A stretch of 64,000 bases of DNA, from the NCBI GenBank assembly GCA_963717045.1, contig CAVQVD010000015.1:687747-751746 (forward strand), written 5' to 3'. This document shows, in pieces, positions 5,607-59,385 of the stretch. The notes beneath the pieces were generated by a model, which saw only the letters and a list, made by a program, of their open reading frames with translations, ran no database searches and had not been told where the DNA came from. Each line of letters opens with the position of its first letter. Within the stretch, counting starts at the first letter, position 1. Both the position numbers and the translations under genes were made by a program. The DNA comes from an uncultured delta proteobacterium. GTDB taxonomy: Bacteria > Desulfobacterota > Binatia > Binatales > Binataceae.

Positions 5607-5656
5607 CGTCCTATTGGATCTTGCTGAGATTTTGCTGACATCTTGCGAGGAGAGGC

Positions 5657-6454: not shown

Positions 6455-6475
6455 AGCCGCTTCGGGGAAACAGCT

Positions 6476-6709
6476 ATGCGCATCGTCTTTCGCCTCTCGC
6501 GCGCCACGATGGTCGCGCTCTTATGGACCGGTATATTCGCCGCCCGCGCGTATGCTCACGGAGGAATTGCCGGACCCGACGAACTTGGGCCGCCGGTAAT
6601 CACCTCGGCCGTACTTGGCATTGGGGGCTATTGGCTAATGATGCTGTGGCCAGCGCGCAGCCGTCCTGTCGTCAACAACAGACGCAAATCGGCGCGTCAC
6701 GCGCGATGA
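6476..6709 (+). CDS. small hypothetical exported membrane protein encoded between subunits A and B (signal peptide, N-terminal His after predicted cleavage, one TM helix, basic tail)
   Basis: 77-aa ORF with GGGGAA RBS-like element; signal peptide ...ARAYA|HGG mirrors PmoB signal peptide ...PRAFA|HGE; fills otherwise 310-bp A-B gap. Confidence 0.35.
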   Translation: MRIVFRLSRATMVALLWTGIFAARAYAHGGIAGPDELGPPVITSAVLGIGGYWLMMLWPARSRPVVNNRRKSARHAR

Positions 6710-6764
6710 ACGCGATGAAATAGAAGAGTCTTCAGGCGATTTCTACGCCATTCGGGGAGGCGGA

Positions 6765-8583: not shown

Positions 8584-8598
8584 ACGGAGAGTTGCGAC

Positions 8599-10167: not shown

Positions 10168-10787
10168 TGGCGCGACTTTTTTTCGGTCGAGGTAATGGCG
10201 TATCGTCGGCCTTGCTCGTTTTGGTGGCGATGCTTGCGCTGGCGCTTCCGCTCGCCGCGCGGGCTGAACTCGGCAATTCCGGACGGCCACGCACGGCGCT
10301 CAGTCCCACCGACGGACTGCCAAAAGTAAGCCTGACAGATCAAAATGGCAGGGCGATCTCGCTTTCGTCATTGAAGGGCAAGCCCGCGCTGGTCGCGTTT
10401 ATTCACACCTCGTGCGAGGGACCCTGCGAGCTGATCACCGCACAAATGAAATCGGTGGCGCGCGACCTGGGTCCCGGGTTCAAATCGAAAGTCACGATGG
10501 TCTCGATCACGACCGAACCCAAGGAGGACGGATCGCGCGAGTTGCTTGCCTACGCCAAGGCGCAAGGTGTGGACGCCGATGGATGGGTGTTCCTGACCGG
10601 GGCGCCGGCGAAAATCCGCCGCCTGCTGGCCCTGTACGGAGTATCGGCCGAGGACGACGATTCGGCTCACGTCCTTGAGCTGTTTCTGCTCAGTGCCGAT
10701 GGTGTCGGAATGCGCCGCTACAACGGTGTTGCGACACGACCGGAAACGATCGCCGCGGATATCAAGAAAACCGCCTTGCCTCACTAG
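10167..10787 (+). CDS. SCO1/SenC family copper chaperone (thioredoxin-like)
   Basis: Signal/TM anchor, CEGPC (CxxxC) copper-binding motif and downstream conserved His; GTG start overlaps stop of GMC gene. Confidence 0.8.
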   Translation: MARLFFGRGNGVSSALLVLVAMLALALPLAARAELGNSGRPRTALSPTDGLPKVSLTDQNGRAISLSSLKGKPALVAFIHTSCEGPCELITAQMKSVARDLGPGFKSKVTMVSITTEPKEDGSRELLAYAKAQGVDADGWVFLTGAPAKIRRLLALYGVSAEDDDSAHVLELFLLSADGVGMRRYNGVATRPETIAADIKKTALPH

Positions 10788-16842: not shown

Positions 16843-18397
16843 ATGGCTGAGGCTAGCAAACTTTCCCGCCGCTTGAGCAGCCAAGACGCCTCATTCCTAT
16901 ACAACGAGACGCCGCACGGCCCGCTTCACGTCGGTCTTCTTCAGACCTTCGAGGGCGAGATCGAGTTTGACCGGCTGATAAATCACCTCGAGCGTCGTAT
17001 CCACCTTTTGCCGCGCTACCGGCAACGCCTGGTGTTCGCACCGTTCAATCTGGCGCACGCGACCCTCGAGGACGATCCCCAGTTTGAACTGCGCAATCAC
17101 GTCAAGCGTCATTTGCTGGAGCGCGGCGCCGGGGACGCCGAACTCGGCCTCGGCGGCGATGCGGGCTAACGAACCCGCGCTCGAGCGGAGCCGGCCGTTA
17201 TGGGAGTTGCATCTATTTCGAGGGCTCGCGGACGGACGTTCGGCGCTGTTGTGGAAGATCCATCATTGTATAGTCGACGGAGTCTCGGCCTTACAACTGA
17301 TTGCGACCGCGATGGATCTGAGGCCCGATGCTCCGGCGCCCGCACCAGAGAAGGAGCCGTGGAAACCTGCGAGACTGCCCGACAGCTCAAGGTCGCTGTT
17401 GGATGCGGCGGTCGCGCTGGTCCAGAGTCGCCTCGACGAATTGCACGAGGCGGGGAAGCTGTTGAGCGCCCCGGCCGACCTGGCCGAGCGGAGCGCGGCG
17501 ATGACCAACGCCGCGGCCCAGATGTTCCAGATGATGTCGCGGCCGGTGGTCGCGGCGCCGTGGAATCTTGGATTCGTAAGCCGGAGCCGCTCGCTCGCCT
17601 GGCTCAGAGTTTCGTTCGGCGACCTGCGCGCAATTCGCAGCGCTCTGGGGGGAACCGTCAACGACGTCGTTCTGAGTATTCTGAGCGAGGGCGCGGCGCG
17701 GTACCTGAAAGATCACGAAGTCGCGACCGAGGGGCTGCCGCTACGAATCGGATGCCCGGTCAACGTGCGGCGCGAGAGCGAAGCCGGCGCGATGGGTAAT
17801 CGGGTTTCGATGATGTTTCCCGAATTGGCCGCGACGCCGATGGACCCGATCGAACGCTATCGCTCTGTGGTCCGCGAGACTGAGCGGATAAAGGCGGCGC
17901 GCGAACCGCAGGGGATGGACTTGCTAACGGCGGCTGCCGACTCAGTTGCGCCGAGCCTGCAGGACCTGAGCTCAAAGATGACCAACGCCGCGATCGAGGC
18001 CGCGACTCGGCTTTCCGAGTTCAGCGGAGGGATCGCCCGAATGATCGCAAGGCCTGCGATAGGAATCAACTTCATCGCGACCAACGTACCGGGGGCGCAG
18101 GTTCCGCTGTACCTGGCGGGGCGGCGGATGCTCGAGTTCATCGGCCTGGTGCCATTGGCGGGCAGCTTCGGTTATGGCGTGGCGATTCTGAGTTACAATA
18201 AGAGCTTGTTTTTCGCGATGGCGGCGGAGCCCCGTTTGATGCCCGACGTGGAATTGATGAAGTCGCGTATCGCCGACGCCTTCGCGGATCTCAAGGCCGC
18301 GGCACAAAGCGTGATGCCCGAGCAAGAGCGATCGATTCGCGCAGCCGGGAACGCGCCGAAGCGCGATTCGGCGATGGCCCGATTAACTGAAGCGTAA
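16843..18397 (+). CDS. wax ester synthase/diacylglycerol acyltransferase (WS/DGAT) family; reading frame broken by apparent 1-nt indel near 17150-17170 (two ORF fragments 16843-17169 and 17084-18397)
   Basis: N-terminal fragment LSSQDASFLYNETPHGPLHVG and C-terminal fragment with catalytic HHCIVDG motif lie in adjacent frames and together give a full-length WS/DGAT. Confidence 0.65.
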
Positions 18398-19071: not shown

Positions 19072-20142
19072 ATGTCACTTCTCACTGAACTCCCGATGTA
19101 TTGGATGGACGGCGCCGTGCGCGCACTCGACGGCAACCGTCGTGGATTGAGCGACCATTATCCGCTGAGCGAGGATCCGCCGGGGGTGACCCCGTATGAG
19201 ATTGTTCACGAGGGCGGAAAGGTCAGGCTGCGGCACTACGCCGCGCGCGGCAATGCCCATCGCACGCCACTGGTCTTCGTTTACGCACTAATCAAGCGTC
19301 CTTTCATACTGGATATGTTTCCAGGCCGCAGTGTGATGGCGAACCTGACCCGTCAGGGATTCGATGTTTACATGGTGGAATGGATTCCACCCGCGCGGGC
19401 TGACAGCTGGCGAGGATTCGACGCCTACGTGAACCAGGATCTCGGCGATACCATGCGCGCCGTTCAGCGCCTTACCGGCGAACCGAAAGTCAACCTGCTG
19501 GGCTATTGCTTCGGCGGTCTGCTGACAACCCTGTACGCGGCGCTCCATCCCGGAGATATCAAGAACCTGATCACTCTCACGACGCCCTTCGATACCGCGG
19601 TCGATGACAATCCGCTGTTCAATCTCGAGAGCAGATTCAGCGGCCAGACTGTCGACCTGATAACCTCGGTTTACGGCAACTGCCCGGCCTGGTTCATCAG
19701 AGGGCTGTTCACGGCGACCGCCGTCGTTCATCACGCAGTCGACAAGTACGTCGCGCTTTACCGAAACAAGGAGAAGGAGGACTACGCTGAATTCTTCGAC
19801 TTGTTCGAGCGCTGGATGTCCGGGGACGTGCCATTGGCCGGGCGCATATTCCGCGAGGTGACGCGCGATTTTTTCCAGAACAATCTGCTCAAGAAGGGCG
19901 AGTTCAAGGTCGGCGGCGAGCGCGTGGACTTGACCAACATCATCTGTCCGCTGCTCAATGCGATCGGCGAGTTCGATGACGTCGTGTACCCGGCCTCGAG
20001 CCTCCCGCTAATCGATTTCGTCGGAAGCGAGGACAAGCTCAACCTGACGTTCGCGGCGGGACACGTCGGGATGATCGTGAGCAGCGCGGCGCACAAGAAG
20101 TTTTGGCCGCAGGTCGGCGCGTGGCTCACCGAGCGCGACTGA
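19072..20142 (+). CDS. phaC: class III poly(3-hydroxyalkanoate) synthase subunit PhaC
   Basis: 356 aa; lipase-box GYCFGG; alpha/beta hydrolase pattern of 40-kDa PhaC. Confidence 0.85.
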   Translation: MSLLTELPMYWMDGAVRALDGNRRGLSDHYPLSEDPPGVTPYEIVHEGGKVRLRHYAARGNAHRTPLVFVYALIKRPFILDMFPGRSVMANLTRQGFDVYMVEWIPPARADSWRGFDAYVNQDLGDTMRAVQRLTGEPKVNLLGYCFGGLLTTLYAALHPGDIKNLITLTTPFDTAVDDNPLFNLESRFSGQTVDLITSVYGNCPAWFIRGLFTATAVVHHAVDKYVALYRNKEKEDYAEFFDLFERWMSGDVPLAGRIFREVTRDFFQNNLLKKGEFKVGGERVDLTNIICPLLNAIGEFDDVVYPASSLPLIDFVGSEDKLNLTFAAGHVGMIVSSAAHKKFWPQVGAWLTERD

Positions 20143-24786: not shown

Positions 24787-25070
24787 CAGACCTTTTCCTG
24801 TGGTTGGGCCTGTTGCTTGCCCTGGGTTTTTAGCGCTGGTCTGGAAGTGCGCCTGCAGCCGCTCTCCTTAAAGCTACATTTTGCGCCGACCATGGCGAAA
24901 GTGCATCCTACGTCGGGCATCTTTTCCCACTGGACGGCTGCCTGTTGGGCCTGGAGCCCCAGCTTTCCGAGCGCGGGCGAAAAGGCGGCGGCCGCCATGA
25001 GCGATCAGCCCTAGCCAGCAGTTCTGTTGACGCGGGCGGATGCTTCGCGTTATCGCCTTGGTTGAAACCT

Positions 25071-26375
25071 ATGCACGACGCGACCTCGCGATGGGATCAC
25101 CTGGTGCAGGAGGGGCGAGTGCATCGCTCGCTCTACACCGACGCCTCGATCTTCGCCGAGGAGATGACCCGGATTTTCGGCGGTACCTGGGTTTATCTCG
25201 GCCACGAGAGCGAAATCAGCAAGCCCAACGATTTCGTCACCCGCAATCTCGGCCTGCGGCCGATTATCCTGACCCGCGATGGCAGCGGCAAAATCAACGC
25301 GCTGATGAACCGCTGCTCGCATCGCGCAGCGACGGTGTGCCGCGCGCGTGAGGGTTCGGCGCGCTATTTCACCTGCGGCTATCACGGATGGACCTACAGC
25401 AATAGCGGCGAGTGCGTCTCCGTGCCGGGCGAGGACGCATACGGGCCCGATTTTCGGATCGCCGACTATAACCTCGCAAGGATTGCTCGCGTAGAGATTT
25501 ACCGGGGATTCATTTTCGGCACTCTGAACCGCGAGGCGCCGGCCCTGGTCGAGCACCTGGGCGCGGCGCGCCCGCTGATCGATCAGTGGCTGGATCGCTA
25601 TCCGGGGGCGGAGGTGGTTGTACGCAGCTCCGCTCAACGGATGGTCATGGGCGCTAACTGGAAACTGGTATACGACAATGCGGGCGACGGCTATCATCCG
25701 CCGTTCTCACATCGTTCGTTACTGCTGATGACCGCGCGTCGCCACGGACCCGACCGCGACATGTCGTACTACGGAACGAGCGCGCCCGACGATTGCGCTA
25801 TGTATACGCAGGCGCTCGGCAACGGCCATACTTTTATCGATCAGCGGCCCGAAATGCATGCGGGTTCGGCCTGGGAGCGGCAGCGGCCGCAGCCGGGGCG
25901 GGAGACCTACGAGGCGCAACTTCGCCGGCGCCTCGGCGATGAGGAGGCGAAACGGCTGCTGGAGGTCGCGGTCGGATCGGGGATGAACCTCAACGTCTTT
26001 CCCAACCTGCTCATCATCGGCAACCAGATTCAGGTGGTCGAGCCGCTAGCGGTCGACCGGGTTCAGGTGACATGGTATGCGACCACGCTCGAAGGAGTGC
26101 CGGACGAGATCAACCTGCTGCGAATGCGCACGCAGGAGGATTTCCCCAATTTCGGCGAGGTCGATGACTGCGCGAATTTCGAGGCCTGTCAGCAGGGTAT
26201 GGCGATTCCGGAGCTCGAGTGGATCGATATCAGCCGCCATCTTCGCACCGGCGTCGAGCGGACCGACGCCCAAGGCGTCATCACCGGACCGATAAGCGAC
26301 GATCTCCATTTCCGCGCCTACTACAAAGAGTGGAAGCGGCTGATGAGCGCGGAGCTGAAGCTTACGGTGGGATAG
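25071..26375 (+). CDS. Rieske non-haem iron ring-hydroxylating oxygenase, alpha subunit
   Basis: Rieske CSHRAATVC...CGYHGW; mononuclear Fe block; start chosen at ATG 25071 (MHDATSRWDHLV). Confidence 0.85.
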   Translation: MHDATSRWDHLVQEGRVHRSLYTDASIFAEEMTRIFGGTWVYLGHESEISKPNDFVTRNLGLRPIILTRDGSGKINALMNRCSHRAATVCRAREGSARYFTCGYHGWTYSNSGECVSVPGEDAYGPDFRIADYNLARIARVEIYRGFIFGTLNREAPALVEHLGAARPLIDQWLDRYPGAEVVVRSSAQRMVMGANWKLVYDNAGDGYHPPFSHRSLLLMTARRHGPDRDMSYYGTSAPDDCAMYTQALGNGHTFIDQRPEMHAGSAWERQRPQPGRETYEAQLRRRLGDEEAKRLLEVAVGSGMNLNVFPNLLIIGNQIQVVEPLAVDRVQVTWYATTLEGVPDEINLLRMRTQEDFPNFGEVDDCANFEACQQGMAIPELEWIDISRHLRTGVERTDAQGVITGPISDDLHFRAYYKEWKRLMSAELKLTVG

Positions 26376-26388
26376 GAGACCGGAGTTC

Positions 26389-26970
26389 GTGACCAGGGAC
26401 GACTCGACCGCTGGGGAGCCCTCGCTCTATGTGAATGACGCGCTGTACGAGAGGCTGATGTCGCTTGATCGTCTGTGGAAGCAGCCTGGCGAGCCGCCGG
26501 CGCGGGAGCTCGAGGAGTATTGCGAGCGTCTGATCAAGCGCGAAGCCCGGCTGCTCGACGACGGTGAGTTCGAGCGCTGGCTCGAACTGTTCAGCCGCGA
26601 ATGTATCTATTGGATACCGCTTGGGCGGGGCAACGATCCCCGGCGCGAGGTGACGATCGAGTTTCACGATCGGCGGCGGCTGGTGGATCGGGTCGCGCGG
26701 CTGCGCACCGGGAGCGCCTATTCGCAAATTCCGCCCACCCGCACCTGTCATCTTCTGAGCAATCTGGAGATTTTCCCGAGCGGCGCGGACGAACTCGCGG
26801 CCCGGGCGAATTTTACGATTCACACCTACCGGTGCGGCGTTCGTCGTACGCTGGCTGGCTGGTGCGGGTACCTTTTTGTCAAAGAGGGCGGTGGCTGGAA
26901 GATTGCGCTGAAACAAATCAACCTGATCGACGCCGACGAGGGCCAGGAGAACAACTCCTTTTTCCTGTGA
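26389..26970 (+). CDS. ring-hydroxylating oxygenase beta subunit (NTF2/SnoaL-like)
   Basis: About 190 aa, immediately downstream of alpha subunit, beta-subunit-like pattern. Confidence 0.75.
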   Translation: MTRDDSTAGEPSLYVNDALYERLMSLDRLWKQPGEPPARELEEYCERLIKREARLLDDGEFERWLELFSRECIYWIPLGRGNDPRREVTIEFHDRRRLVDRVARLRTGSAYSQIPPTRTCHLLSNLEIFPSGADELAARANFTIHTYRCGVRRTLAGWCGYLFVKEGGGWKIALKQINLIDADEGQENNSFFL

Positions 26971-27045
26971 CGCCGCGGTCCGTTGCGGCCGCGCCTGCCG
27001 TTCTCCGACGTCGAGCCGGGACGTGCGGCGATAGCGGGGTGACAA

Positions 27046-28527
27046 TTGGCTGGATCGGATGAGAAGCAACCGTCGGGCCTCTCGCGCCCAGAATTCGTCG
27101 AGCGCCATGGCCTTTGGACGCTAGCGCAAAAAGAGCGTGTTCAGGGGGTTCGCGACACGATCGAGCGTCACCGGATAACCTCGGTGCGGGTCGTATTCGC
27201 CGACCAGCACGGAATCGCGCGCGGCAAAACGCTGACTGCGCGAAACTTTCTGGCCGCCCTCGAACGTGGCCACGCCGTGGTAAGCACGCTGTTCGCGTTC
27301 GATACCTCAAATCATGTCGCCTTCCCGGTTTTCACCGGCCAGGGCGGTCTGCCGCTCGCTGGGGCCGGCGGTTCCGGCGACCTTCTGATGGTTCCTGACC
27401 CGGAGACCTTTCGCGTGCTGCCATGGGTTCCCGCCACGGCCTGGGTGTTGTGCGACCTGTACCTGCCGGACGGCGCGCCGGTGCCTATCGCGCCCCGTTA
27501 CATCTATCGGCGGGCGCTCGAAGAGCTGAAGCGCAAGGGCTACGGATCGATGGTGGGTCTCGAAGTCGAGTTCTATGTGATGAAGCTCGAGGACGCCTGT
27601 CTGCGTCCCGAGCAGTCCGGACAGCCGCCGGATCCGCCGCAGGTCAATTTGCTGTCTCACGGCTTCCAGCATCTGGCCGAGCAGAAGATCGACGAGATGC
27701 AGCCGATACTCGAAACCTTGCGCGAAAATCTGGAGGCGCTTGGTCTTCCGATTCGCAGTCTCGAGACCGAATGGGGCCCGAGCCAATGTGAAGTCACTTT
27801 CGAGCCCGAAACGGGGCTACGACCCGCCGATGACATGCTCCTGTTCAGGAGCGCGGTGAAGCAGATCTGTCGGCGCCACGGATACCATGCGACATTCATG
27901 TGCTGGCCGGCGCTGCAGAACGTCTATGCGAGCGGCTGGCATCTGCATCAATCGCTGTACTCGCTGGCGACCGGCGAAAACGCGTTTGTGGCGCCCGACT
28001 CCTCGCAACTGCTATCGGCTACCGGCCGCGATTTCGTCGGTGGACTGCTGCATCATGCGGCAGCAAGTTGCGTCTTCAGTAACCCGACGATCAACGGCTA
28101 CAAGCGGCTGCGTCCCAACTCTCTCGCGCCACATCGGGCCAACTGGGCCACGGAGAATCGAGGCGCGATGATTCGCGTAATCGGCAGTCCGACGGACCCT
28201 GGCACGCATCTTGAGAACAGGATTGGAGAACCTGCCGCCAATCCATACCTGTACCTGGCGGCAAACCTGATCGCGGGTATGGATGGGGTCGAGAAGCGGA
28301 TCGATCCGGGCCCTCCGACCAGCGATCCCTATGCCGACGCCGACCGCGCGGTACTGCCGCGGTCGCTGATGGATGCGGTGGGCGCGCTCAAACATAGTGC
28401 GCTGTTTCGGGAGAAGATGGGCAACGATTTCATCGACTACCTGGTAGCGCTGAAGGAATTCGAGATTTCGCGTTTCCTTTCGTTCGTTACCGACTGGGAG
28501 CACCGCGAGTACTTCGAGATGTTTTGA
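27046..28527 (+). CDS. glutamine synthetase-like gamma-glutamyl-amine ligase family protein (GmaS/PuuA/AtdA1/IpuC-type)
   Basis: GS catalytic domain blocks (GLEVEFYV, EYGPSQCE, NGYKRLRP); paralog of 57883-59322. Confidence 0.8.
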   Translation: MAGSDEKQPSGLSRPEFVERHGLWTLAQKERVQGVRDTIERHRITSVRVVFADQHGIARGKTLTARNFLAALERGHAVVSTLFAFDTSNHVAFPVFTGQGGLPLAGAGGSGDLLMVPDPETFRVLPWVPATAWVLCDLYLPDGAPVPIAPRYIYRRALEELKRKGYGSMVGLEVEFYVMKLEDACLRPEQSGQPPDPPQVNLLSHGFQHLAEQKIDEMQPILETLRENLEALGLPIRSLETEWGPSQCEVTFEPETGLRPADDMLLFRSAVKQICRRHGYHATFMCWPALQNVYASGWHLHQSLYSLATGENAFVAPDSSQLLSATGRDFVGGLLHHAAASCVFSNPTINGYKRLRPNSLAPHRANWATENRGAMIRVIGSPTDPGTHLENRIGEPAANPYLYLAANLIAGMDGVEKRIDPGPPTSDPYADADRAVLPRSLMDAVGALKHSALFREKMGNDFIDYLVALKEFEISRFLSFVTDWEHREYFEMF

Positions 28528-28679: not shown

Positions 28680-30314
28680 ATGGGCGAGCGTGGAGCACCG
28701 GTCTCACTAGCAGTCGCATCTATCGCGATTTCGTTCTTGAGCGTGATTTCATTTTTAAGTTTGACGGGCGTGGCGGAAGCGCAGCAGAAGAACAACAACA
28801 CGCTGCTGGTATGCACGGCGTGTCATATACCCAAGGACGGCAAGCTGGATTCGATCGAATCGGTGCGGATGACACCCGAGGGCTGGCGGATGACGCTCAG
28901 CCGAATGATTCGCAATCACGGTCTGCAGCTCAAAGAGGACGAGGCTCACAATATTCTCAAGTACCTCAGCGACAATTACGGTTTGGCGCCCTCCGAGATC
29001 GCTCCGTACGAATATGCGCTTGAACAGCGCAACAGCACCTTGCAGGACTTCGATCGGGCGGGTTTGCCGCCCAACGTGATGGGCGCTTGCGTGCAGTGTC
29101 ATTCGTTCGCGCGGATCGCCCTGCAGCGGCGGACGCCGGAGATGTGGAAGCGGCTGCCCGACCTGCATGAGTACTTCGTGCCGTTCGTGGCTTCCGACAC
29201 GTCCTCGGCGGGCAATCTTATCGACCCGTGGCGCAAGGTGGCGACCGGAGAGGCGGTGCCATACTTAGCCAAGCGCTTCCCGTTCGAGGCGCCTGCGTGG
29301 AAGGAATGGCAGGCGGCAGCGAGGCCGGATTATTCGGGGAAATGGATGGTGGTGGGGCACGACCCGGCCAAGGGCGGCGACTATACCGGAGTGCTCACGG
29401 TGACCTCGTCGGGTGACGATCAGTATCGCGGCAAGTTCACCCATGAGTTCGAGGATGGCTCCTCGGTGACGGGCAGCACGGAGGCGGTGCTGTACGCGAA
29501 GTTCGAGTGGCGCGGGCGGGCCAAGGTGGGGGACCGGCAGGAAGCAGAGATTTTCTTCGGGAACGAGAACGGCACCCGGATGCACGGGCGGCGCCTGCTG
29601 ACGCCGGTGGGCGATCTTGGGATGGACGAGACCCTGTACAAGGCTGGGAGCGCAGCCACGCTGCTGACCGCCATCCCCAAGTCGATCCAAGCCGGACAGA
29701 CGGTCAAGGTGCGGCTGTTCGGGATGCATCTGCCCGCCAGCGTGAGCGCGGACGCGATTAGCTTTGGCGATGGCCTAAGGGTGAAATCGGTCAGCCAGTC
29801 CGATGACAACACGGTGGTCGCCGAGGTGGAGGCCGACGCCAACGCCAAGCCAGGACCGCGCAGTGCGAAGATCGCAGGAGTCGAGGGCGAGCAGCCGATT
29901 TACCTGTACAAAACCGTGGATTACATCAGCATTACGCCCGAACGGGGCTATGGGCGGCCGGGCGGGACGCGTGGCCCCAAGGTCAACCAGCAATTCGAGG
30001 CGAGCGCGTTCACCCATGGGCCGGATGGCAAGCCGGTCAACATCGGGCGGGTCGGCCCGCTGACCTGGGACGTGGCGGAGCGGGTGAGCAGAATCGGCGA
30101 CGACGACGTGCTGTACGTCGGGAAGGTCAATCCATACGGAACATTTATTGCCGCCTCCGACGGACCTAACCCGGAGCGCGAGCATAGCGAATCCAACGTG
30201 GGCGACGTGTGGGTCGAAGCATGGTACAAGCCCGACCCGTCGAAGCCGCCGATGGGCGCGCGGGCCTTCATGCTGTTGATGCCGCCGAAGTTCGTGTTCA
30301 ATCCAATAAATTGA
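28680..30314 (+). CDS. qhpA: quinohemoprotein amine dehydrogenase alpha subunit (dihaem cytochrome c)
   Basis: Signal peptide, two CxxCH haem motifs (CTACH, CVQCH) in N-terminal domain, about 540 aa. Confidence 0.8.
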   Translation: MGERGAPVSLAVASIAISFLSVISFLSLTGVAEAQQKNNNTLLVCTACHIPKDGKLDSIESVRMTPEGWRMTLSRMIRNHGLQLKEDEAHNILKYLSDNYGLAPSEIAPYEYALEQRNSTLQDFDRAGLPPNVMGACVQCHSFARIALQRRTPEMWKRLPDLHEYFVPFVASDTSSAGNLIDPWRKVATGEAVPYLAKRFPFEAPAWKEWQAAARPDYSGKWMVVGHDPAKGGDYTGVLTVTSSGDDQYRGKFTHEFEDGSSVTGSTEAVLYAKFEWRGRAKVGDRQEAEIFFGNENGTRMHGRRLLTPVGDLGMDETLYKAGSAATLLTAIPKSIQAGQTVKVRLFGMHLPASVSADAISFGDGLRVKSVSQSDDNTVVAEVEADANAKPGPRSAKIAGVEGEQPIYLYKTVDYISITPERGYGRPGGTRGPKVNQQFEASAFTHGPDGKPVNIGRVGPLTWDVAERVSRIGDDDVLYVGKVNPYGTFIAASDGPNPEREHSESNVGDVWVEAWYKPDPSKPPMGARAFMLLMPPKFVFNPIN

Positions 30315-30330
30315 TACGCTGTTTTTTGAG

Positions 30331-31821
30331 GTGCAACCTGTGCTACCTGACGAACTGGAATTCCGGCCCGAGAACGCTCATGTGGTCAATCACAGCGGAA
30401 TGACCGTGCTGGTGGCCGCGAAGACCATGTCGTTGTTCACGATGGATCCGCTGTCGGAAGCTGTGCTGCAGTACTGCGAGAGCAAGCGGCGGTTCACGCT
30501 GGAAGATGTCGTCAAGCAACTCGCACAACCCGCTGGCGAGTTCGTCGGCGAAGACGTGGCGCACGTGGTGCGGGAATTCATGAACGTGGACGTGCTGATG
30601 GGTGGACAGAACAGCGCCCCAACCGCGCTCCCGTTCGTGGACACGGAAAAGTTTCCGCTAAGTTCCCTGGTGCTCAACGTCACCAATAAGTGCAACCTGC
30701 ACTGCACCTACTGCTACGAGCCGGACGGAGCCAAGTACGGCCCGGCGCCAGTGCGGATGGAATGGGAGACGGCGCGCTCGAGCGTGGACTTTCTGTTCGA
30801 GAAGGCGGGGCGAAACCGCGAGGTCAATATCGTTTTCTTCGGCGGCGAGGCGCTGCTCAATTTCAAGCTGATGAAGCAGGTGGTCGATTACGCCGAAAAT
30901 AAGAGCGTGGCGGTGGGCAAGAAGGTAGACTTTTCGATCACCACCAACGGGACGCTGCTGGTTGACGAGATAATCGACTTTCTGCAGGAGCATCGCTTCG
31001 GCGTGACGATCAGTATCGACGGGCCCAAGGAGATTCATGACCGCCGCCGCTTCTTTCTCAGCCACGCCGGCGAGAAGAAAGGCTCGTACGACCAGATCAT
31101 GAGCCGCGTCGAACGCTTGCTCGAGCGCTACACGGCGCGCCCGATCGTGGCCCGGGTCACAGTGACCAAGGGCGCGGTCGAAATCGTTCGGATTTACGAA
31201 CACCTGAGCGGCCTGGGATTCTTCGAGGTCGGGTTCTCGCCGGTGACCGCGAAGCCGGGACTTGATTACGGCCTCGAAGCGGCCGACCTGCGCGAGGTGC
31301 TGGCCGGGTTCAAGGAACTCGGCGGGCGCTACGTGGAGCGGGCGATCGGCGGTCAGTACACAGGCTTCTCGAACCTGAGCACGATGCTGACCGACCTGCA
31401 TCTTGGGACCAACAAGATGTTCCCGTGCGGCGCGGGCCTGGGGCTTCTCGACGTCGACGGCAACGGCGACGTATACCTGTGTCATCGGTTCCCCGGGGTC
31501 GAGGAACATAAGTACGGCAATGTGAAGCAAGGTGGAATCGAATACGGACGTCTAACCGAATTCGTCAACAGCGTGCAGGTGGGCAACAAGCCAGTGTGCC
31601 AGACCTGCTGGATTCGCGGAATCTGCGGGGGTGGATGTTATCACGAGGCACTGCAGGAGTTCGGTGAAGCGGCGCTGCCCAATTTGCACTATTGCGTATT
31701 TCTGCGCGAGTGGACTGAGTATGGGATCGGGGTGTTTACCGAACTCGAGCAGAAGAACCCGGGCTTTGTCGAAAAATATATCGTGCGAAGCCGTGGAGAT
31801 GTGCCCAAGGAACTGAGTTGA
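30331..31821 (+). CDS. qhpD: radical SAM/SPASM maturase for QHNDH gamma subunit
   Basis: CNLHCTYCY radical-SAM motif plus C-terminal SPASM Cys cluster (CQTCWIRGICGGGCYHE). Confidence 0.85.
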   Translation: MQPVLPDELEFRPENAHVVNHSGMTVLVAAKTMSLFTMDPLSEAVLQYCESKRRFTLEDVVKQLAQPAGEFVGEDVAHVVREFMNVDVLMGGQNSAPTALPFVDTEKFPLSSLVLNVTNKCNLHCTYCYEPDGAKYGPAPVRMEWETARSSVDFLFEKAGRNREVNIVFFGGEALLNFKLMKQVVDYAENKSVAVGKKVDFSITTNGTLLVDEIIDFLQEHRFGVTISIDGPKEIHDRRRFFLSHAGEKKGSYDQIMSRVERLLERYTARPIVARVTVTKGAVEIVRIYEHLSGLGFFEVGFSPVTAKPGLDYGLEAADLREVLAGFKELGGRYVERAIGGQYTGFSNLSTMLTDLHLGTNKMFPCGAGLGLLDVDGNGDVYLCHRFPGVEEHKYGNVKQGGIEYGRLTEFVNSVQVGNKPVCQTCWIRGICGGGCYHEALQEFGEAALPNLHYCVFLREWTEYGIGVFTELEQKNPGFVEKYIVRSRGDVPKELS

Positions 31822-31892
31822 TCGGGAACTGAGTTGCTGCCACCGGGCGCAGAATCCCGCGCCGTGCTCTGGACCCGTAACAGGAGGAGAAC

Positions 31893-32210
31893 ATGAAACA
31901 CTTGAAGGCGGCGAACAAGAAGGCCCGTGCGGTTGAAGCAATTCGCACGGGGGGAGACGTGGTCGGGATGGTGCAGCCGATGGGCTGTACCACGATTTTC
32001 AATCCCGGCTGGGAAGCCGACCCTTGGGGTGGCGCGCATGCGATGTGCAGTCCCACGGAAGCCGATCTGGCGGGATGCTCGGGCGTGTGCTGGTGGCCGG
32101 CACAAGTGCCGGACAGCCTGCAGAACTATCCTGAATGGGCAAAGGGCTGCTCCGGTGTGAACATGGAAGACTGGAGAAGCCTGAACGTGGAGTTCCCCAA
32201 AGTTAAGTAG
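31893..32210 (+). CDS. qhpC: quinohemoprotein amine dehydrogenase gamma subunit (CTQ and thioether-crosslinked peptide) with leader
   Basis: Numbering from Met25, Cys7/Glu16, Cys27/Asp33, Cys37/Trp43 and Cys41/Asp49 fall exactly at published QhpC crosslink/CTQ positions; CSGVCWWPAQV. Confidence 0.8.
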   Translation: MKHLKAANKKARAVEAIRTGGDVVGMVQPMGCTTIFNPGWEADPWGGAHAMCSPTEADLAGCSGVCWWPAQVPDSLQNYPEWAKGCSGVNMEDWRSLNVEFPKVK

Positions 32211-32365
32211 AGACGAACGCCTCGGCCGCCGCTGGCCGAGCAACTACATTGGCTTGTCGAGGGGCGTCGGCCTTGCATGCAAGGTGCGCGAGCCAGTCGC
32301 TTCGTCGCGGCCGCGCGCTCAAAGGGTGATCAGGTAGGCTGCAAGGCGAGTCGCAAAGGATTGTC

Positions 32366-33517
32366 ATGACCAACAAGAATGGTTGGCAGCTACGTCTGTA
32401 CGGTTCGTGGATTTTTGGACTCGCGCTGATGATGTGGGCGGGCACTGCGTCGGCCAAATGGTACATGGTCGTGGGGACGCTGCCCAACCTCATTCAGGTC
32501 GTCGACACCACGACTGACAAAGTTGTCAGGACTATTCCGTTGGAGGGTCCCGGGCCGATTCTGCAGGTCTCGACCGATTCTGCGACGCCGCGGTATGCCT
32601 ACGCGACGACCAACCTGGACCAAGCCGTCGCCGTAGTTGACCTGGAACAGGGTAAGCAGGTCGCGACCTACAAGCTGTCGAGCGATACCGAGACCGTACG
32701 GGTTTCGGCTACCAACCTTAATCCCAAGGGCGACAGGTTGTACATAAGCGAGCTGCCGCTCAAGGTGACCCCGGGCCGCTATCAGCACGAAGAGCAGCGC
32801 TTCGTGGTTTACGACACTGCGACCAACAAGGAAGTAAAGTCCTTTCCGGCGCCGGCGCAGACCCTATCGTTCGCATTCTCGCCTGATGGCAAACGGCTCT
32901 ACGCTTTCTGCGTTGGGCAGGACGTGATGGTGCTCGACGCGAACGACGGCCACGTGCTGGGCACGATTCCGCTCGCCCATCGCAATATCACGGGCATCCG
33001 CGCAACGTATGGGCTGCCCCTCCTGGCGAATTACCAGGAGCAGAATTACCTGATCACTTTCGCGATTATCGTCGAGGATTCAATAACCGATACCGACACG
33101 CTGGCGGTTGGCCTGCTCGACCTCAAGCAGCAGCAGCCGGCGCTGCAGATTATCGAGACCGAACCCTTCGTCGAGAACTGGTATTCGGTCGAAGGCATCG
33201 CCACCCCGCCCAACCTGCACAAGGCGTATTTCGTATGGAACGATCTCTGGAAAATCGATTACCAGACCAAGAAGCGGGAAAAAGCAGTCTCTCTTCCCAA
33301 TAGCCAAGCGGTGCCGCTGCTCTCGCCCGACGGCAAGAAGGTGTATTGCGGCGGCCAGTGGCATGCTCTCTTTGTTTACGATGCCAACACGCTCAATCAC
33401 ATCGACGACGTCGAACTCGGCCATTCGATGGCCGGGATCGGGATGCGGTTCGTGCAGAACGATAAAGATCTGGCGGCACCCGGATCCACCAGCCAGGATC
33501 CGCAAAGCTCACAATAG
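32366..33517 (+). CDS. qhpB: quinohemoprotein amine dehydrogenase beta subunit (seven-bladed beta-propeller)
   Basis: Signal peptide, 383 aa, YVTN-like propeller repeats, position in qhp operon. Confidence 0.7.
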   Translation: MTNKNGWQLRLYGSWIFGLALMMWAGTASAKWYMVVGTLPNLIQVVDTTTDKVVRTIPLEGPGPILQVSTDSATPRYAYATTNLDQAVAVVDLEQGKQVATYKLSSDTETVRVSATNLNPKGDRLYISELPLKVTPGRYQHEEQRFVVYDTATNKEVKSFPAPAQTLSFAFSPDGKRLYAFCVGQDVMVLDANDGHVLGTIPLAHRNITGIRATYGLPLLANYQEQNYLITFAIIVEDSITDTDTLAVGLLDLKQQQPALQIIETEPFVENWYSVEGIATPPNLHKAYFVWNDLWKIDYQTKKREKAVSLPNSQAVPLLSPDGKKVYCGGQWHALFVYDANTLNHIDDVELGHSMAGIGMRFVQNDKDLAAPGSTSQDPQSSQ

Positions 33518-33571
33518 TAAGTCAGGTTTGCGAGCGGATATCTGTTAACCGCATCCGCGAAAATTTAACTG

Positions 33572-34357
33572 GTGAGGAAGCCAACCGGCCGCCGTCTCCG
33601 TATCGCGGCCACGTCGCCGGAATTCGATCCCGAATCATTAGGCGCGCGCACGGGCGCGGGCGTTCGCGTCGCGCTCATCGATAGCGGGATCAACTCCGCC
33701 CATTCACACGTTGGTCCGCTCGCTGGCGGAGTAGCTTTTAGCGCCGGCTCTAACAGCAAGGTGCTGCAGAGCTCTGATTTTAACGACACTCTGGGACACG
33801 GTACCGCGCTGGCCGGAATTCTGAAATTCAAAGCGCCCGAGGCGACATTGTTCGCCGTGAAGGTTTTCACAGACCGCCTGGTGACGTCGATCGAAATTCT
33901 CGAAGCGGCACTCGGCTGGGCGATAGAGCAGAAGATGCACGTGATCAATCTGAGTCTAGGGACCGACAACCCCGCGCATCGTGCGCGGATGGCAAAGATA
34001 GCGGCGAGGGCCAAGCGCGCCGGAACGTTGATCGCCGCCTCGTCTCCACCCGGACGGTCAGACATGCTTCCCGCGGCCCTCGACGGCGTCTTCGGTGTGG
34101 CAGCGAGTGACGATTGTTCGTGGAGCGAGTACCGATACGTCCCGGACGACCCGATTCATTTCAGGGCTCACCCGTCGCCGCGCCCGTTGCCCGGCCTGGA
34201 CCAGTCGCGCAACTATCGCGGGCACAGCTTTGCCTCGGCGCATCTGAGCGCTTTGCTGGCGCTGCTGATTGAGGATCGCCCGGAGTTGGGATTCGCGAAC
34301 GCTCGCGAGCGCTTGTTGAAATGTACCGGACTGCCGCTGCCGTTGAAGAATCCTTGA
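33572..34357 (+). CDS. qhpE: subtilisin-like S8 serine peptidase (QhpC leader peptidase)
   Basis: Catalytic triad blocks ALIDSGI, HGTALAGI, GHSFASAH; GTG start. Confidence 0.8.
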   Translation: MRKPTGRRLRIAATSPEFDPESLGARTGAGVRVALIDSGINSAHSHVGPLAGGVAFSAGSNSKVLQSSDFNDTLGHGTALAGILKFKAPEATLFAVKVFTDRLVTSIEILEAALGWAIEQKMHVINLSLGTDNPAHRARMAKIAARAKRAGTLIAASSPPGRSDMLPAALDGVFGVAASDDCSWSEYRYVPDDPIHFRAHPSPRPLPGLDQSRNYRGHSFASAHLSALLALLIEDRPELGFANARERLLKCTGLPLPLKNP

Positions 34358-34399
34358 TGATCGTTCGCGGGAACGCACGCGGCCGTTGCCCCGCTTGTT

Positions 34400-36140
34400 C
34401 TAGGCAACGCGCTCCTGCGCCCGCATTTTCTGCGACACGCCGTCGGGGTGGTCGCCGTAGCTGCCGCTCCACAACACGCGGCCGTTGTCGAGCACCATCA
34501 CGTGATCGTCCTGCCGGATCGAGGACAGCCGATGCGTGATCATTATCACCGTGCGGCCGGGCAGCGCTCGTTCAACAGCGGCCCGGATTTCAGCTTCGCT
34601 GACCACGTCCAGCGCCGAAAGGGCTTCATCAAGGACCAGGATTTTAGGACCCTTGAGTAGCGCACGAGCGATAGAGATGCGCTGCCGTTGGCCGTCGGAG
34701 AGCGTCGCTCCATGCTCGCCGACCGGGTTATCGTAGCCATCGGGCAACGAGCTAATGAAATCGTGGAGTCCGACCGCGCGCGCGGCGGCGATCACCTGCT
34801 CCCGCGAGGCGTCCGGACAGGCATAGCGGAGGTTTTCGATCATCGGCGCGTGAAACACGAAGGCCTGATGTCCGGTCACTACCAGTTGGTTTCTGAGCCA
34901 TGCCAGATCGAGAGTGCGGAGCTCGTGGCCGTCGAGCAGGATCGAGCCGGCCGCCGGGTTCGATCAACCGGGCCATCAGGTCGACGATCGAGGTCTTACC
35001 GGCGCCGCTTGGGCCAACAATTGTGAATCTCCCGCCTGCGGGAATTTTGAAATTCAGGTCGTCGAGAATCGGTACGGCTGGATCATGGCTGAAGGTGACC
35101 CGCCGAAATTCGATCTCTCCGTGAACCTCGGGCAGCCGGAGGGTTCCTGGCGCGCTTTCGTTTTCGGTTGGCAGGTCAAGGAATTCGAAGATACGGTCCA
35201 CGGAGACGCCCGCGCGCTGCAGCCGCAGGTAGAGATCGATCAGCGCCTGTAATGGACTGAACGCGCGCATCTGATAGGCCGAGAATGCCACCAGACTGCC
35301 GATCGTCATGTGCCCTTCGATTACCAAGTATCCGCCGTAAAGCGTCACCAGTGCGGAACCGAGAAATGTGCTGGCGGCAGAAGCGCTGCTGCCCAGATAC
35401 GCGAGCATCTCGAGCCGCGTGACTGAGTTGACGAATGCGACGCCCAGGGCGGAAAGCCGGGCGTGCTGGACTTTTTCGGCTACAAAAAGCTTTACAAATT
35501 TTATTGCCGACAGTGACTCTACCAAAAATGACGAAATTGCCGCGTTGAGTTCGCGGACGGCGCGAGTCTGATTCACGATCAACGGTCGAAACCGCATCAC
35601 TCCGTACAGTTGCAACGGCACCAGCGCCAAGCTGAGTAAAAACAGCTTCCAGTTCAACCACAGGAGAAAACCGGTCGCGGCGAACAGCGTGAAAATGTTT
35701 GCGATAAAATTGAAGCCAGCGTCGGTCAGCATCGCTTGCACTTCAGCGATGTCGGTATTGAGACGCGAAAGAAGGTCGCCGACTTTTGCCCGCACGTGAA
35801 AACGCATCGGCAGCGCTTGCAGATGCTCGAACAGATGCTGGCGTAGATTGAACAGCACCCGCGCCGTTACACTGGTGTAGTAGTAGCGATTGAACGCGCC
35901 GAGCACATAGCTCGCGACGGTAACGGCGATCATTACGCCGGTGAGAATCCAGAGCAGGCGTAGATTGCGGGCCTGAAGGACATCGTCAATCAGAATCTTG
36001 GTGAAAATAGGCCAGAGCAGGCCCAAAATCGTATTCGAGAACGACAACAGAAAAATGATGGCGAGCTTGGAACGAAATCCCGAAAGAAACGGCAGCAGTC
36101 GGCGAACGCGCGAAAGGCTGACTTTGCTGAGCGGCCTCAT
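34400..36140 (-). CDS. qhpF: ABC exporter, fused permease-ATPase (QhpF-like); frame broken by 1-nt indel near 34940-34960 (fragments 34930-36140 and 34400-34879)
   Basis: Six-TM domain then Walker A GPSGAGKTS in one frame; LSDGQRQR signature, Walker B ILVLDEA and H-loop continue in adjacent frame; start chosen at ATG 36140 with GGAG RBS. Confidence 0.7.
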
Positions 36141-36383
36141 TAAGCTCCATTTTTCTCGAGCTATGAGGCGCATTAGTCCATAACCCGAGCCCCGGCGTAA
36201 TCCGACGCCGCATTCGTTCCTGACCATTCGATCATCATCCGAAGCGGCTATCGACTTTCGCGTGCGCAATGATAGTAATCCGCTCGGCAGGAAAGCAAGA
36301 TAAGAGAGAATCAGTAGAAGATCGACTCAAATCAGTAAAGGACTGACCTAGATCGGTAAGGGACTGCTGTCGAATCGAAGCAA

Positions 36384-37121
36384 ATGGAAAGAACCACCGA
36401 TATCGCCAATCCGAAGGACGGCTCCCAACTGATGCTGATTCCCGAGGGTGAATTCCTGATGGGCAGCGATGATGGCTATCCCAGCGAGCGCCCCGCCCAT
36501 CGCGTCTTCGTGAGCCCGTTTTATATCGCCAGAACCCTTGTCACCAACTCCCAATACCGAAGCTTTGTGCTGGAGACCGGATACGCGGCGCCTTACATGG
36601 ATGATCCCCGGGCCGAGTGGGCGAATTGGGATCGGGACAGCAAAAACTTTCCCGCCGGCCGTGAAACGCACCCGGTGGTGCTCGCCTCGTGGATTGATGC
36701 TTCGGCTTACTGCGAATGGGCAGGGACCAGACTGGCTACCGAGGCCGAGTGGGAAAAGGCGGCTCGCGGAGGCTTGGACGGCAAGCTGTTTCCGTGGGGC
36801 GATGAGGAAATCTCCCACGAGCTAGCCAACTACGACAATCAGGACGGTACCACTCCGGTGGGCGTTTATCCGCCAAATGGCTATGGTCTTTACGACATGG
36901 TGGGTAATGCGTGGGAATGGGTGGCCGACTACTATGACCCCAAATACTATTCGCGGTCGCCCATGCGCGATCCCCGCGGACCGGAGCAAGGCTCATCGCG
37001 GGTGCTGCGCGGTGGTTCGTGGCTGCTGTTTGCCCGTTACTGCCGAGTTTCGTACCGATTCAGGAATAGTCCAAACTTCCACGCTAGCTTGATTGGCTTT
37101 CGTGTGGCTCGGTCGCTATGA
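36384..37121 (+). CDS. formylglycine-generating enzyme (FGE/SUMF1) family protein
   Basis: LMLIPEGEFLMGSDD, YCEWAG, MVGNAWEWVADYY, RVLRGGSW blocks typical of FGE domain. Confidence 0.8.
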   Translation: MERTTDIANPKDGSQLMLIPEGEFLMGSDDGYPSERPAHRVFVSPFYIARTLVTNSQYRSFVLETGYAAPYMDDPRAEWANWDRDSKNFPAGRETHPVVLASWIDASAYCEWAGTRLATEAEWEKAARGGLDGKLFPWGDEEISHELANYDNQDGTTPVGVYPPNGYGLYDMVGNAWEWVADYYDPKYYSRSPMRDPRGPEQGSSRVLRGGSWLLFARYCRVSYRFRNSPNFHASLIGFRVARSL

Positions 37122-38556
37122 GAGCGCCTTCTCGGTAGAGCCGGACCAGGGCCGCACGCACCATGCCGGAATCCGCGCGGGTTCCCTCGCGTCGCTTCAG
37201 ATAGCCCGCCACGATATCGGTTATCGCGGGCTTCTTTTTGATCTCCTTGAGCAGAGCCGGTACGCATACGTTGTGAAGGAATCGAAGACCCCGCGTGTTA
37301 CTGTCGCTCACGAAAACCTCACGGGTTTTCACGCGCGGCCATTCGAGCACTGGGCGCCGCTCGATCCTGACGTCCGAGGCGAGGCGTACGTGCGAAACCT
37401 CGGTAGGTGGCTTGAGCGTCGCTCCGTTGGCCGGCGCGCGCGAGAGCGAAGCCAGCAGGCCGCTGCGCTTCTGCCAGAAAACGGAATCCGGCCATCGCCG
37501 TTCCTGGTCGTAGTATTCGGCGGATTGGCGATAGTGCGTCGAGTAAGCATTGCTCTGTGCGTCGCGATAGAAGCTAAGAGCGCTTGCGGATGACGCCGGG
37601 CTGCTCAGGCTAGTGTTTATCACCGCGGCCCCGGTGATTGCCGACGCCATCGCTGTCTGCACGCCCTCTGAAGAGAGCGGATCGATGAATAGTCCGGCGT
37701 CGCCCAAAAGCAGAAAGCGCTCGCCGGCGAACTGACGAGCGGTATACAAGGTCGCGTCCGAAACCCGGAGCGGGTGCGGTAGGCTGGCGGTCGCAAGAAA
37801 TTTCGAGACGTATGAAAGCCTGTCTATTTCGGACAGATAGAAAGCCCCGAGTCCGAGTTCCCGAATGCGCCGGCCCTCGCTCCAATCGACCAGCAGAGTG
37901 ACGTTGCGCAGCCCGTTCTGCAGCGGGACCGACCATACCACGCCGTTCTCATACGCTTCGAGTAGAGTGTTGCCGAAATCATCGCCCGCGGGCGCCGCGG
38001 CGTCGCGCCAGTAGCCGGTTACCGCAAGCGTTTGGAAGTCCGGGTCGCGTTGGCGAAAATCCTGACGCGCGAGAATTCCGGCATGACCGCTTGCATCGAC
38101 AAAAAATCGCCCCCTGATCGGGGCCTCGCGCGCGGTATGCACCGTCACGCCACGCCTATCGATGCGGACGCCATTGACGCCCGCGCCGAGCCTGACCTCC
38201 ACTTTTTTCTGGCGACGCGCATTCTCCAGCAACAGCATATCGAAGGTCTCGCGCCAGACCTGGAAGCCCATTCTGGATTTGTCTGCGCTGTAGTAACCGG
38301 TGCGCGGCTCGGGAGTGCCCCAGCACACGGTGTGGCCGGCCATTCGGAGGAACCCGCCGCTCTCCACCGTTTGGCGCAACCTGAGAAAATCCAGGACCGA
38401 AAGGATGCTGGGGGTCAGCGATTCACCGATTCGGTAGCGGGGAAATTTGCTTTTGTCCAGCAGCAGGACCCGAAAGCCGAGCCCAGCCAGCAGATAGCCG
38501 GCGGTGCTGCCAGCCGGACCTGCGCCGGCGATTACAACGTCGGGGTTTGTGGCCAC
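37084..38556 (-). CDS. qhpG: FAD-dependent monooxygenase of tryptophan-halogenase-like fold (QhpG-like)
   Basis: VVIAGAGPAGSTAGYLLA GxGxxG motif, about 490 aa, adjacent to qhp genes. Confidence 0.7.
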   Translation of the reverse strand: MATNPDVVIAGAGPAGSTAGYLLAGLGFRVLLLDKSKFPRYRIGESLTPSILSVLDFLRLRQTVESGGFLRMAGHTVCWGTPEPRTGYYSADKSRMGFQVWRETFDMLLLENARRQKKVEVRLGAGVNGVRIDRRGVTVHTAREAPIRGRFFVDASGHAGILARQDFRQRDPDFQTLAVTGYWRDAAAPAGDDFGNTLLEAYENGVVWSVPLQNGLRNVTLLVDWSEGRRIRELGLGAFYLSEIDRLSYVSKFLATASLPHPLRVSDATLYTARQFAGERFLLLGDAGLFIDPLSSEGVQTAMASAITGAAVINTSLSSPASSASALSFYRDAQSNAYSTHYRQSAEYYDQERRWPDSVFWQKRSGLLASLSRAPANGATLKPPTEVSHVRLASDVRIERRPVLEWPRVKTREVFVSDSNTRGLRFLHNVCVPALLKEIKKKPAITDIVAGYLKRREGTRADSGMVRAALVRLYREGALIATEPHESQSS

Positions 38557-59322: not shown

Positions 59323-59385
59323 CTCATCGCGCTCCGCATTTCGGCCCGCGCAGATCCTTCTTTAGCTCATCAACTAACCTGCGTA

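Follow-up and report, generated by a model that had tools for sequence, protein, structure and literature searches.

Gamma-glutamylation-dependent arylamine dioxygenases are, to our knowledge, known almost only from plasmid-borne gene clusters of pollutant-degrading bacteria. The closest described systems are the proteobacterial clusters AtdA1–A5, TdnQTA1A2B, DcaQTA1A2B and NpaA1–A5, in which a ligase resembling glutamine synthetase (GS-like) is combined with the large (alpha) and small (beta) subunits of a Rieske oxygenase. Homologues of these three core proteins, at 45–54% identity, are encoded by adjoining genes in a 64,000-nucleotide stretch of DNA from an uncultured soil-dwelling member of the Binatia (assembly GCA_963717045.1, contig CAVQVD010000015.1, positions 687,747 to 751,746 of the forward strand), which is referred to as the window throughout. 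We regard it as likely that the three genes (25071–28527) constitute the substrate-handling core of a chromosomally encoded, aniline-dioxygenase-type arylamine dioxygenase that relies on gamma-glutamylation. The kind of pathway is already known; the module adds a member from a little-studied phylum, and one with a minimal gene layout.

In the Atd, Tdn, Dca and Npa systems the genes follow the order Q-T-A1-A2-B-R, and the classical cluster of plasmid pNB8c comprises genes for the GS-like protein, a glutamine amidotransferase (GATase), alpha, beta, a reductase and a LysR regulator. The window order is alpha-beta-GS. Unlike these systems, the module comes without a GATase, a BenC-type reductase or a LysR regulator, is chromosomal, has the same GC content as its surroundings and no transposases nearby, and encodes a ligase that falls outside the characterized clade. 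With respect to catalytic residues, loss of the ammonium site and the residues of the arylamine tunnel, the window ligase is like those of the four described systems.

The six-component Skt aniline dioxygenase of Rhodococcus ruber R1 (Actinomycetota; bioRxiv 10.1101/2024.12.29.630347) shares with the window the placement of alpha and beta first and of the GS-like gene after them, and the window alpha is 55–61% identical to its actinobacterial homologues. The actinobacterial loci differ in having a GATase-like gene between beta and ligase, and genes for a ferredoxin and a ferredoxin reductase after the ligase. The same minimal layout as in the window recurs in partner-less clusters of Bacillota and Cyanobacteriota, which according to the same preprint (bioRxiv 10.1101/2024.12.29.630347) have no electron-transfer chain nearby, and in alpha-beta-GS or GS-alpha-beta loci of Gamma- and Alphaproteobacteria; all of these belong to different phyla and are uncharacterized. 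A further group of clusters (Methylobacterium nodulans pMNOD01, Cupriavidus, Polaromonas JS666 and Novosphingobium resinovorum SA1 pSA3) combines a GS-like gene, a ferredoxin and a reductase with an alpha-only oxygenase of another Rieske family (LigXa_C, no beta subunit), which shows 26% local identity to the window alpha. Beyond these, the benzoate and anthranilate dioxygenases BenAB and AntAB have the Rieske alpha/beta fold in common with the window proteins, and GlnA, PuuA, GmaS and presumably IpuC share with the window ligase the GS fold and the residues that bind ATP, glutamate and metal.

The module opens with the AtdA3/TdnA1/DcaA1-like alpha subunit (434 aa, 25071–26375, + strand), identified by the Pfam domains Rieske (E 1.5e-18) and Ring_hydroxyl_A (E 2.8e-16). 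It continues with the AtdA4/TdnA2/DcaA2-like beta subunit (193 aa, 26389–26970, + strand; Ring_hydroxyl_B, E 4.3e-28) and ends with a predicted GoaS-class gamma-glutamyl-(aryl)amine ligase, similar to AtdA1, TdnQ and NpaA1 (493 aa, 27046–28527, + strand; Gln-synt_C, E 5.4e-87). The chosen start codons are backed by homologues of equal length (434, 193 and 493 aa) and, in the case of the ligase, by a conserved GGAG/GGGG box 7–8 nt before the start; a GGAG box also precedes the start codon of beta. The genes can be considered real because they recur together, in unchanged order, in relatives at 74–91% protein identity on at least six other contigs, and because the ratio of nonsynonymous to synonymous substitution rates (dN/dS) against three relatives is 0.07–0.15 per gene (0.07–0.10 for alpha). 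An earlier note on this DNA had placed a Rieske alpha, a beta and a GS-like gene at 25071–28527, and domains, homologue lengths and dN/dS all bear it out. The nearest named homologues come from metagenome-assembled genomes (MAGs) labelled ‘Candidatus Binataceae’ and ‘Candidatus Binatia’. On Binatia-like contigs the alpha-beta-GS unit recurs at 74–91% protein identity amid unrelated flanks. Taken together, the comparison indicates that the three-gene module is a functional unit kept by selection.

All three genes lie on the same strand, with gaps of 13 nt between alpha and beta and 75 nt between beta and ligase. Within the latter spacer, conservation is limited to the ribosome-binding box and the start codon, and a further conserved element can be ruled out. 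A search for intrinsic terminators inside the module gave none that is convincing, the single match corresponding to the conserved C-terminal FFL codons of beta; terminator-like matches between the module genes were rarer than in shuffled sequence. Neither the gaps nor the outcome of the terminator search speak against co-transcription of alpha, beta and ligase. The presumed promoter region is the intergenic stretch between the divergent aceE and the alpha gene (24787–25070, + strand), on whose + strand no sigma-70-like site was found. A regulatory RNA or riboswitch was ruled out, Rfam giving no match in the 64-kb window. A signature of horizontal transfer was likewise rejected: GC content is even across the region, and no transposase was seen among the open reading frames (ORFs) that flank the module. 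Upstream, on the - strand, genes for the E1 and E2 components of pyruvate dehydrogenase were identified by reading the translations.

The closest named relatives of all three proteins are components of aniline and chloroaniline dioxygenases, in agreement with the aniline-dioxygenase-like core that had been proposed for this locus. Over its full length the alpha subunit shares 54% identity with DcaA1 of plasmid pNB8c (BLASTP, E 8e-177, 490 bits) and beta is 45% identical to DcaA2 of the same plasmid (E 5e-51). In alpha all metal-centre ligands are conserved: C82/H84/C102/H105 for the Rieske cluster, the bridging D206, and H209/H214/D365-366 for the iron. At the level of NCBIfam, the best models for alpha and beta are of the benzoate/anthranilate dioxygenase type (BenAB, AntAB), with BenA scoring 249 bits on alpha against a cut-off of 781. 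An assignment as benzoate/anthranilate dioxygenase was ruled out, as the DcaA1 match reaches twice the BenA model score and as linkage to a GS-like gene is specific to the alpha clade (see below). As a separate observation, D357 of alpha, which is otherwise invariant in the GS-linked clade, is replaced by Q, S or G in the four sequences aligned from the GS-alpha-beta group L030–L059 (loci L031, L034, L045 and L047).

The ligase is 47% identical both to DcaQ and to NpaA1 (PDB 8WWU), the gamma-glutamyl-naphthylamide/anilide synthase of the 1-naphthylamine pathway, and 47–48% identical over 97–99% of the length to the GS-like genes on chloroaniline plasmids of Delftia, Comamonas, Achromobacter and Variovorax. 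Among solved structures 8WWU is the best match (E 7.9e-129, 434 bits); the top-ranking genuine glutamine synthetase reaches 214 bits (E 2.8e-62), GmaS about 140 bits and PA5508 91 bits. The NCBIfam models stay under their cut-offs throughout: 255.8 vs 650 bits for gamma-glutamylputrescine synthetase (GGputSyn), 253.5 vs 429 bits for GlnA (TIGR00653) and 239.3 vs 469.6 bits for the type III/GmaS-like model. Identity to E. coli GlnA and PuuA is 28% and 25%, respectively. Compared with the aligned Rieske-linked ligases, identity is 44–57%, except for the nearer Binatia relatives at 74–91%.

The active site was inspected in an alignment of the window ligase with 25 Rieske-linked GS-like proteins and with E. 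coli GlnA and PuuA. The metal, ATP and glutamate residues of Salmonella GS (E129, E131, E212, E220, H269, H271, S273, R321, R339, R344, E357 and R359) are kept. Conversely, the ammonium site is replaced (D50' by V79, S53' by L82, flap E327 by L360 and Y179 by H209) and the adenylylation tyrosine is absent, which, together with the low identity and scores, separates the protein from GlnA, PuuA and GmaS. Loss of the ammonium-site residues is the pattern reported for glutamyl-organic-amine synthases (GoaS), which do not use ammonium. Mutagenesis of NpaA1 has shown that the tunnel residues F75', F86' and W235 are required for arylamine turnover, and these correspond to F85, F96 and W243 of the window ligase. 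E232 and E234 of NpaA1, which hold the amino group, correspond to E240 and E242, and M81' corresponds to V91. Because the ATP, glutamate and metal residues are kept, the ammonium site is lost and the aromatic tunnel residues of NpaA1 are retained, the protein is assigned, on sequence grounds, as a putative gamma-glutamyl-arylamine ligase distinct from glutamine synthetase.

A bona fide glutamine synthetase is ruled out by the NCBIfam cut-offs, by the 28% identity to GlnA and by the loss of D50', S53', Y179 and E327; the possibility that the ligase groups with such enzymes, raised in the earlier note, has not materialized. A PuuA- or GmaS-type alkylamine ligase is ruled out by model scores and low identity. 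The parallel drawn there with the ligases for methylamine, isopropylamine and putrescine holds only in a remote sense, with 25% identity to PuuA and about 140 bits for GmaS as compared with 434 bits for NpaA1.

Linkage was surveyed in 80 loci with an alignment to the alpha homologue from GTDB species representatives and in several metagenome contigs. The loci were scored by tblastn, within a radius of 10 kb, for ligase, GATase, BenC-type reductase, ferredoxin and ferredoxin reductase. The related set consists of 51 loci, the window included, whose alpha is at least 45% identical to that of the window. A GS-like gene lies within 10 kb of alpha in 49 of these, nearly always adjoining it. Of the loci fetched whose alpha falls short of about 45% identity, one only (L063, 44–45%) has it, and it was found in none of those at or below 41%, most of which have a BenC-type reductase. 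Of these, the BenAB/AntAB-type loci (alpha about 32–38%) have no GS-like neighbour and usually a BenC-type reductase. The GS-like gene is a signature of this alpha clade. Its near-universal presence beside the alpha clade provides strong comparative evidence for an oxygenase that would act on the ligase product.

The partners are a different matter. A ligase is present while GATase and redox partners are absent within 10 kb in 33 of the 51 related loci, so that the partner-less layout is the commonest among the sampled loci; a GATase-like gene occurs in about 14 (it is absent in 37) and any redox partner in about 11. The Q-T-A1-A2-B-R layout is found in Beta- and Gammaproteobacteria, and an alpha-beta-GATase-GS-ferredoxin-reductase layout in Actinomycetota. 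GS-alpha-beta is the arrangement in many Xanthobacteraceae and other alphaproteobacterial MAGs, and alpha-beta-GS that in Binatia, Bacillaceae and some Gamma- and Alphaproteobacteria. Loci L030–L059, from Xanthobacteraceae, Pseudolabrys, Bradyrhizobium and other alphaproteobacterial MAGs, show the GS-alpha-beta order with no partners within 10 kb. In locus L096 (Binatia MAG GCA_050184825.1, 7229–14181), whose alpha is 62% identical to that of the window, a GATase follows alpha-beta-GS. Here an IclR regulator, the alpha and beta subunits of a 2-oxoacid dehydrogenase E1 component, Rieske alpha, Rieske beta, the GS-like protein and the GATase are encoded in this order on one strand, and a xanthine-dehydrogenase-family enzyme is encoded divergently close by.

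In the window itself, genes for a class-I GATase, a BenC-type reductase, a ferredoxin and a ferredoxin reductase are all absent from the 64 kb. The search for these partners applied Pfam to most predicted genes, the other ORFs being judged by reading their translations, and was complemented by relaxed tblastn. With DcaT, PuuD, DcaB, an adrenodoxin-type ferredoxin and its reductase as queries, tblastn gave no match in the window at E ≤ 0.01. The possibility that a redox partner or GATase is hidden elsewhere in the window is ruled out by these three approaches. The earlier note had reported that neither a GATase nor a ferredoxin-reductase gene is adjacent; this holds and now extends to the whole 64-kb window. 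The GATase is dispensable in NpaA and AtdA, where ligase, alpha and beta together with the reductase suffice (PMC11335346). As it is dispensable in characterized systems, its lack is no real gap. A missing reductase is the rule in this family, not the exception. By analogy with the characterized systems the reductase is essential; being absent from the window, it must presumably be supplied in trans.

In summary, the assignment of the three genes as a gamma-glutamylation-dependent arylamine dioxygenase core is supported, at the level of sequence, by the homology of three proteins, intact catalytic residues, a lost ammonium site, conserved linkage and purifying selection. The chemistry is inferred by analogy with AtdA and NpaA; an aromatic amine as substrate, a redox partner acting in trans and co-transcription are inferred as well. 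In the proposed scheme, the GS-like ligase would spend ATP on gamma-glutamyl phosphate and glutamylate an arylamine, giving a gamma-glutamyl-arylamide. The alpha/beta oxygenase would dihydroxylate the ring at the amide-bearing carbon and its neighbour, and the adduct would collapse to a catechol, the nitrogen leaving attached to the glutamyl moiety. Other parts of the genome would encode both a reductase or ferredoxin as electron donor and the enzymes that break down the catechol.

Several observations weigh against this assignment or at least narrow it. In the ligase pocket, H209 takes the place of V201 in NpaA1 and of a tyrosine in DcaQ, and the stretch V79-S80-T81-L82 stands where DcaQ has T-M-A-P; the H209 position varies even among Binatia ligases. 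In a neighbour-joining tree of the ligases (200 bootstraps), DcaQ/AtdA1-like and actinobacterial Skt-type ligases form a clade with 100% support, and the window ligase lies outside it. Finally, there is no reductase, ferredoxin, LysR regulator or catechol-cleavage gene in the 64 kb; lacking a gene for reductase, ferredoxin or catechol cleavage there, electron supply and downstream route are assumed in the above scheme.

The Binatia ligases form a clade of their own (100% bootstrap), which joins the uncharacterized alpha-beta-GS ligases of Gamma- and Alphaproteobacteria and the alpha-only-Rieske ligases with weak support (64–68%). The deeper nodes of the ligase tree are weak (26–68%) and the alpha tree is poorly resolved at depth; therefore, no claim is made on the branching order of the clades. 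The closest ligases from outside the Binatia (52–58% identity) have an alpha-only Rieske oxygenase as their partner and come from Bradyrhizobium, Methylobacterium nodulans, Cupriavidus, Polaromonas JS666 and Novosphingobium resinovorum SA1. We take these alpha-only Rieske/GS-like clusters to be of the 4-aminobenzenesulfonate dioxygenase (SadA/SadB) type. Because the window ligase lies outside the characterized AtdA1/TdnQ/DcaQ clade, aniline itself is not established as the substrate. The sequence comparisons best support an aromatic amine as the probable substrate class, and we do not commit to a narrower one.

The neighbourhood downstream of the module might point to a different substrate. 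The ligase gene is followed, after 152 nt and on the same strand, by qhpA, the first gene of a qhpA-qhpD-qhpC-qhpB-qhpE operon for a quinohemoprotein amine dehydrogenase (QHNDH; 28680–34357, + strand, identified with NCBIfam). The models for qhpA (28680–30314, + strand; QH_alpha, 391 bits), the radical-SAM maturase qhpD (quino_hemo_SAM, 537 bits) and the gamma subunit qhpC (31893–32210, + strand; QH_gamma, 126 bits) score above their cut-offs, and those for qhpB (QH_beta, 162 bits) and the protease qhpE (QhpE, 156 bits) slightly under; qhpD, qhpB and qhpE lie on the + strand within 28680–34357. The flavoprotein gene qhpG (37084–38556, - strand), also above its NCBIfam cut-off, is convergent to the operon. 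Between the two lie an ABC exporter gene (34358–36269, - strand), a QhpF candidate by position only, and, between exporter and qhpG, a gene with an FGE-sulfatase domain (36384–37121, + strand). The exporter gene is frameshifted near 34,950, just past Walker A, and what follows of the ATPase domain is read in a different frame; in locus L012 the orthologue runs unbroken for at least 589 aa. The break reflects either a pseudogene or an assembly indel.

On this basis the module and the adjacent operon might be one amine-catabolic unit with substrates like those of QHNDH instead of anilines, i.e. aralkyl or alkyl primary amines (phenylethylamine, benzylamine, butylamine) or compounds with both kinds of amino group. 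In favour of such a unit, ligase and qhpA lie 152 nt apart on one strand, no terminator was found between them, and locus L012 (MAG MFD05502.bin.1.141), a 90% relative, is syntenic with the window from the alpha gene through qhp. A transcript common to module and qhp would be possible. The nucleotide similarity begins at 25070 (10000 in L012), one base before the alpha start codon, and the upstream flanks are unrelated (aceE in the window, cupin and MMPL transporter genes in L012), which suggests that the module's 5' border is a rearrangement breakpoint. Still, relatives at 74–85% identity have the three genes without a QHNDH neighbour, and the adjacency occurs in only two of the 51 related loci; it is confined to this lineage. 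The tunnel residues of the ligase are furthermore those of the arylamine enzyme NpaA1, and the alkylamine ligases are remote (see above). A joint unit acting on QHNDH-type amines is hence considered unlikely, and the adjacency may reflect a local grouping of amine-utilization genes.

A lack of partners could also indicate that the module is an inactive remnant, incapable of forming a working oxygenase system without reductase and GATase. Neither a redox partner nor a GATase is found in the 64 kb, and two other genes of the window look frameshifted. However, the reading frames of the module are intact and all catalytic residues are conserved, the dN/dS values against three relatives are low (0.07–0.15), and the partner-less layout is that of the family majority. 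A remnant is very improbable on these grounds. To a similar degree we doubt a biosynthetic or detoxifying role, in which an endogenous or toxic aromatic amine would be glutamylated and hydroxylated for purposes other than growth. The lack of catechol-cleavage genes nearby fits such a role, as does the occurrence of the module alone in several genomes; conversely, no biosynthetic genes flank it, the characterized relatives are all catabolic, and in a 72% relative genes for a meta-cleavage-type hydrolase, an FAA-hydrolase and further Rieske oxygenases are divergently adjacent. Scarcely credible, lastly, is a chance adjacency, in which a benzoate/anthranilate-type dioxygenase that takes free substrates would merely happen to sit beside a common glutamine synthetase or polyamine ligase. 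NCBIfam does rank BenA highest for alpha (249 bits), and for the ligase gamma-glutamylputrescine synthetase or GlnA (about 255 bits), but these scores are far under the curated cut-offs of 781, 650 and 429 bits, the BLASTP score of alpha with DcaA1 is twice that of the BenA model, the ammonium site is lost, and GS-like linkage is near-universal in the alpha clade and nil in the fetched loci at or below 41% alpha identity.

The window holds a second pair of this general kind at 57883–60783 on the - strand, encoding a GS-like ligase (479 aa) and an alpha-only Rieske oxygenase (LigXa_C). This ligase is 50% identical to the first, and with the pair encoded on pMNOD01 of Methylobacterium nodulans the two proteins share 64% and 68% identity. 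No ferredoxin or reductase gene was found near it. The pair is flanked by genes for a PEP-mutase/isocitrate-lyase-family protein, two luciferase-like oxidoreductases, an HpaB-like hydroxylase, a TetR regulator and a PhyH dioxygenase.

Among the remaining genes of the window, a copper membrane monooxygenase operon of the pmoCAB type, in the order C-A-B, is located at 4770–8015 (+ strand; AmoC E 1.4e-44, AMO E 1.9e-59, Monooxygenase_B E 8e-84). Operons of this kind have been described for Binatota in a genomic survey. It is followed at 8038–10787 by genes for a GMC oxidoreductase with its small subunit and a SCO1/SenC copper chaperone. A putative wax-ester synthase/acyltransferase gene, recognized by eye at 16843–18397 (+ strand), appears split into the overlapping frames 16843–17169 and 17084–18397, which suggests a second frameshift or an assembly indel. 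A class III polyhydroxyalkanoate synthase-like gene, likewise read by eye, comes after it (19072–20142). At 45081–52530 (+ strand), translations indicate a membrane-fusion protein gene and then two tandem genes for RND-type efflux pumps of 1038 aa each.

A broader version of the arylamine dioxygenase assignment may be sketched, in which the Binatia clade would be no aniline (xenobiotic) system but a native minimal oxygenase for natural aromatic amines, module and genes for the periplasmic QHNDH would form a co-transcribed super-operon, and the three-gene form would be ancestral, the five-gene plasmid form being recent. We give this combination a small chance. If true, an amine-scavenging unit would hand the aryl nitrogen straight on in the form of a glutamyl amide.

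The main genomic survey of Binatota makes no mention of Rieske oxygenases or of quinohemoprotein amine dehydrogenase, and a literature search found no link between Binatota and aniline or amine dehydrogenase. The module itself will be unsurprising to the specialist; what deserves attention is how widely partner-less modules occur among soil bacteria that have not been cultured. For annotation, the comparison calls for caution, as ligases of this type are easily mislabelled glutamine synthetase or gmaS in metabolic reconstructions of Binatota and comparable groups. According to the survey, soil lineages without cultured members (Binatia, Xanthobacteraceae and others) have the three-protein core on their chromosomes, mostly without partners, and purifying selection on it appears to be strong. 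This points to the family accepting a wider range of substrates, probably natural ones, and the loci provide concrete candidates for learning which aromatic amines soil bacteria consume.

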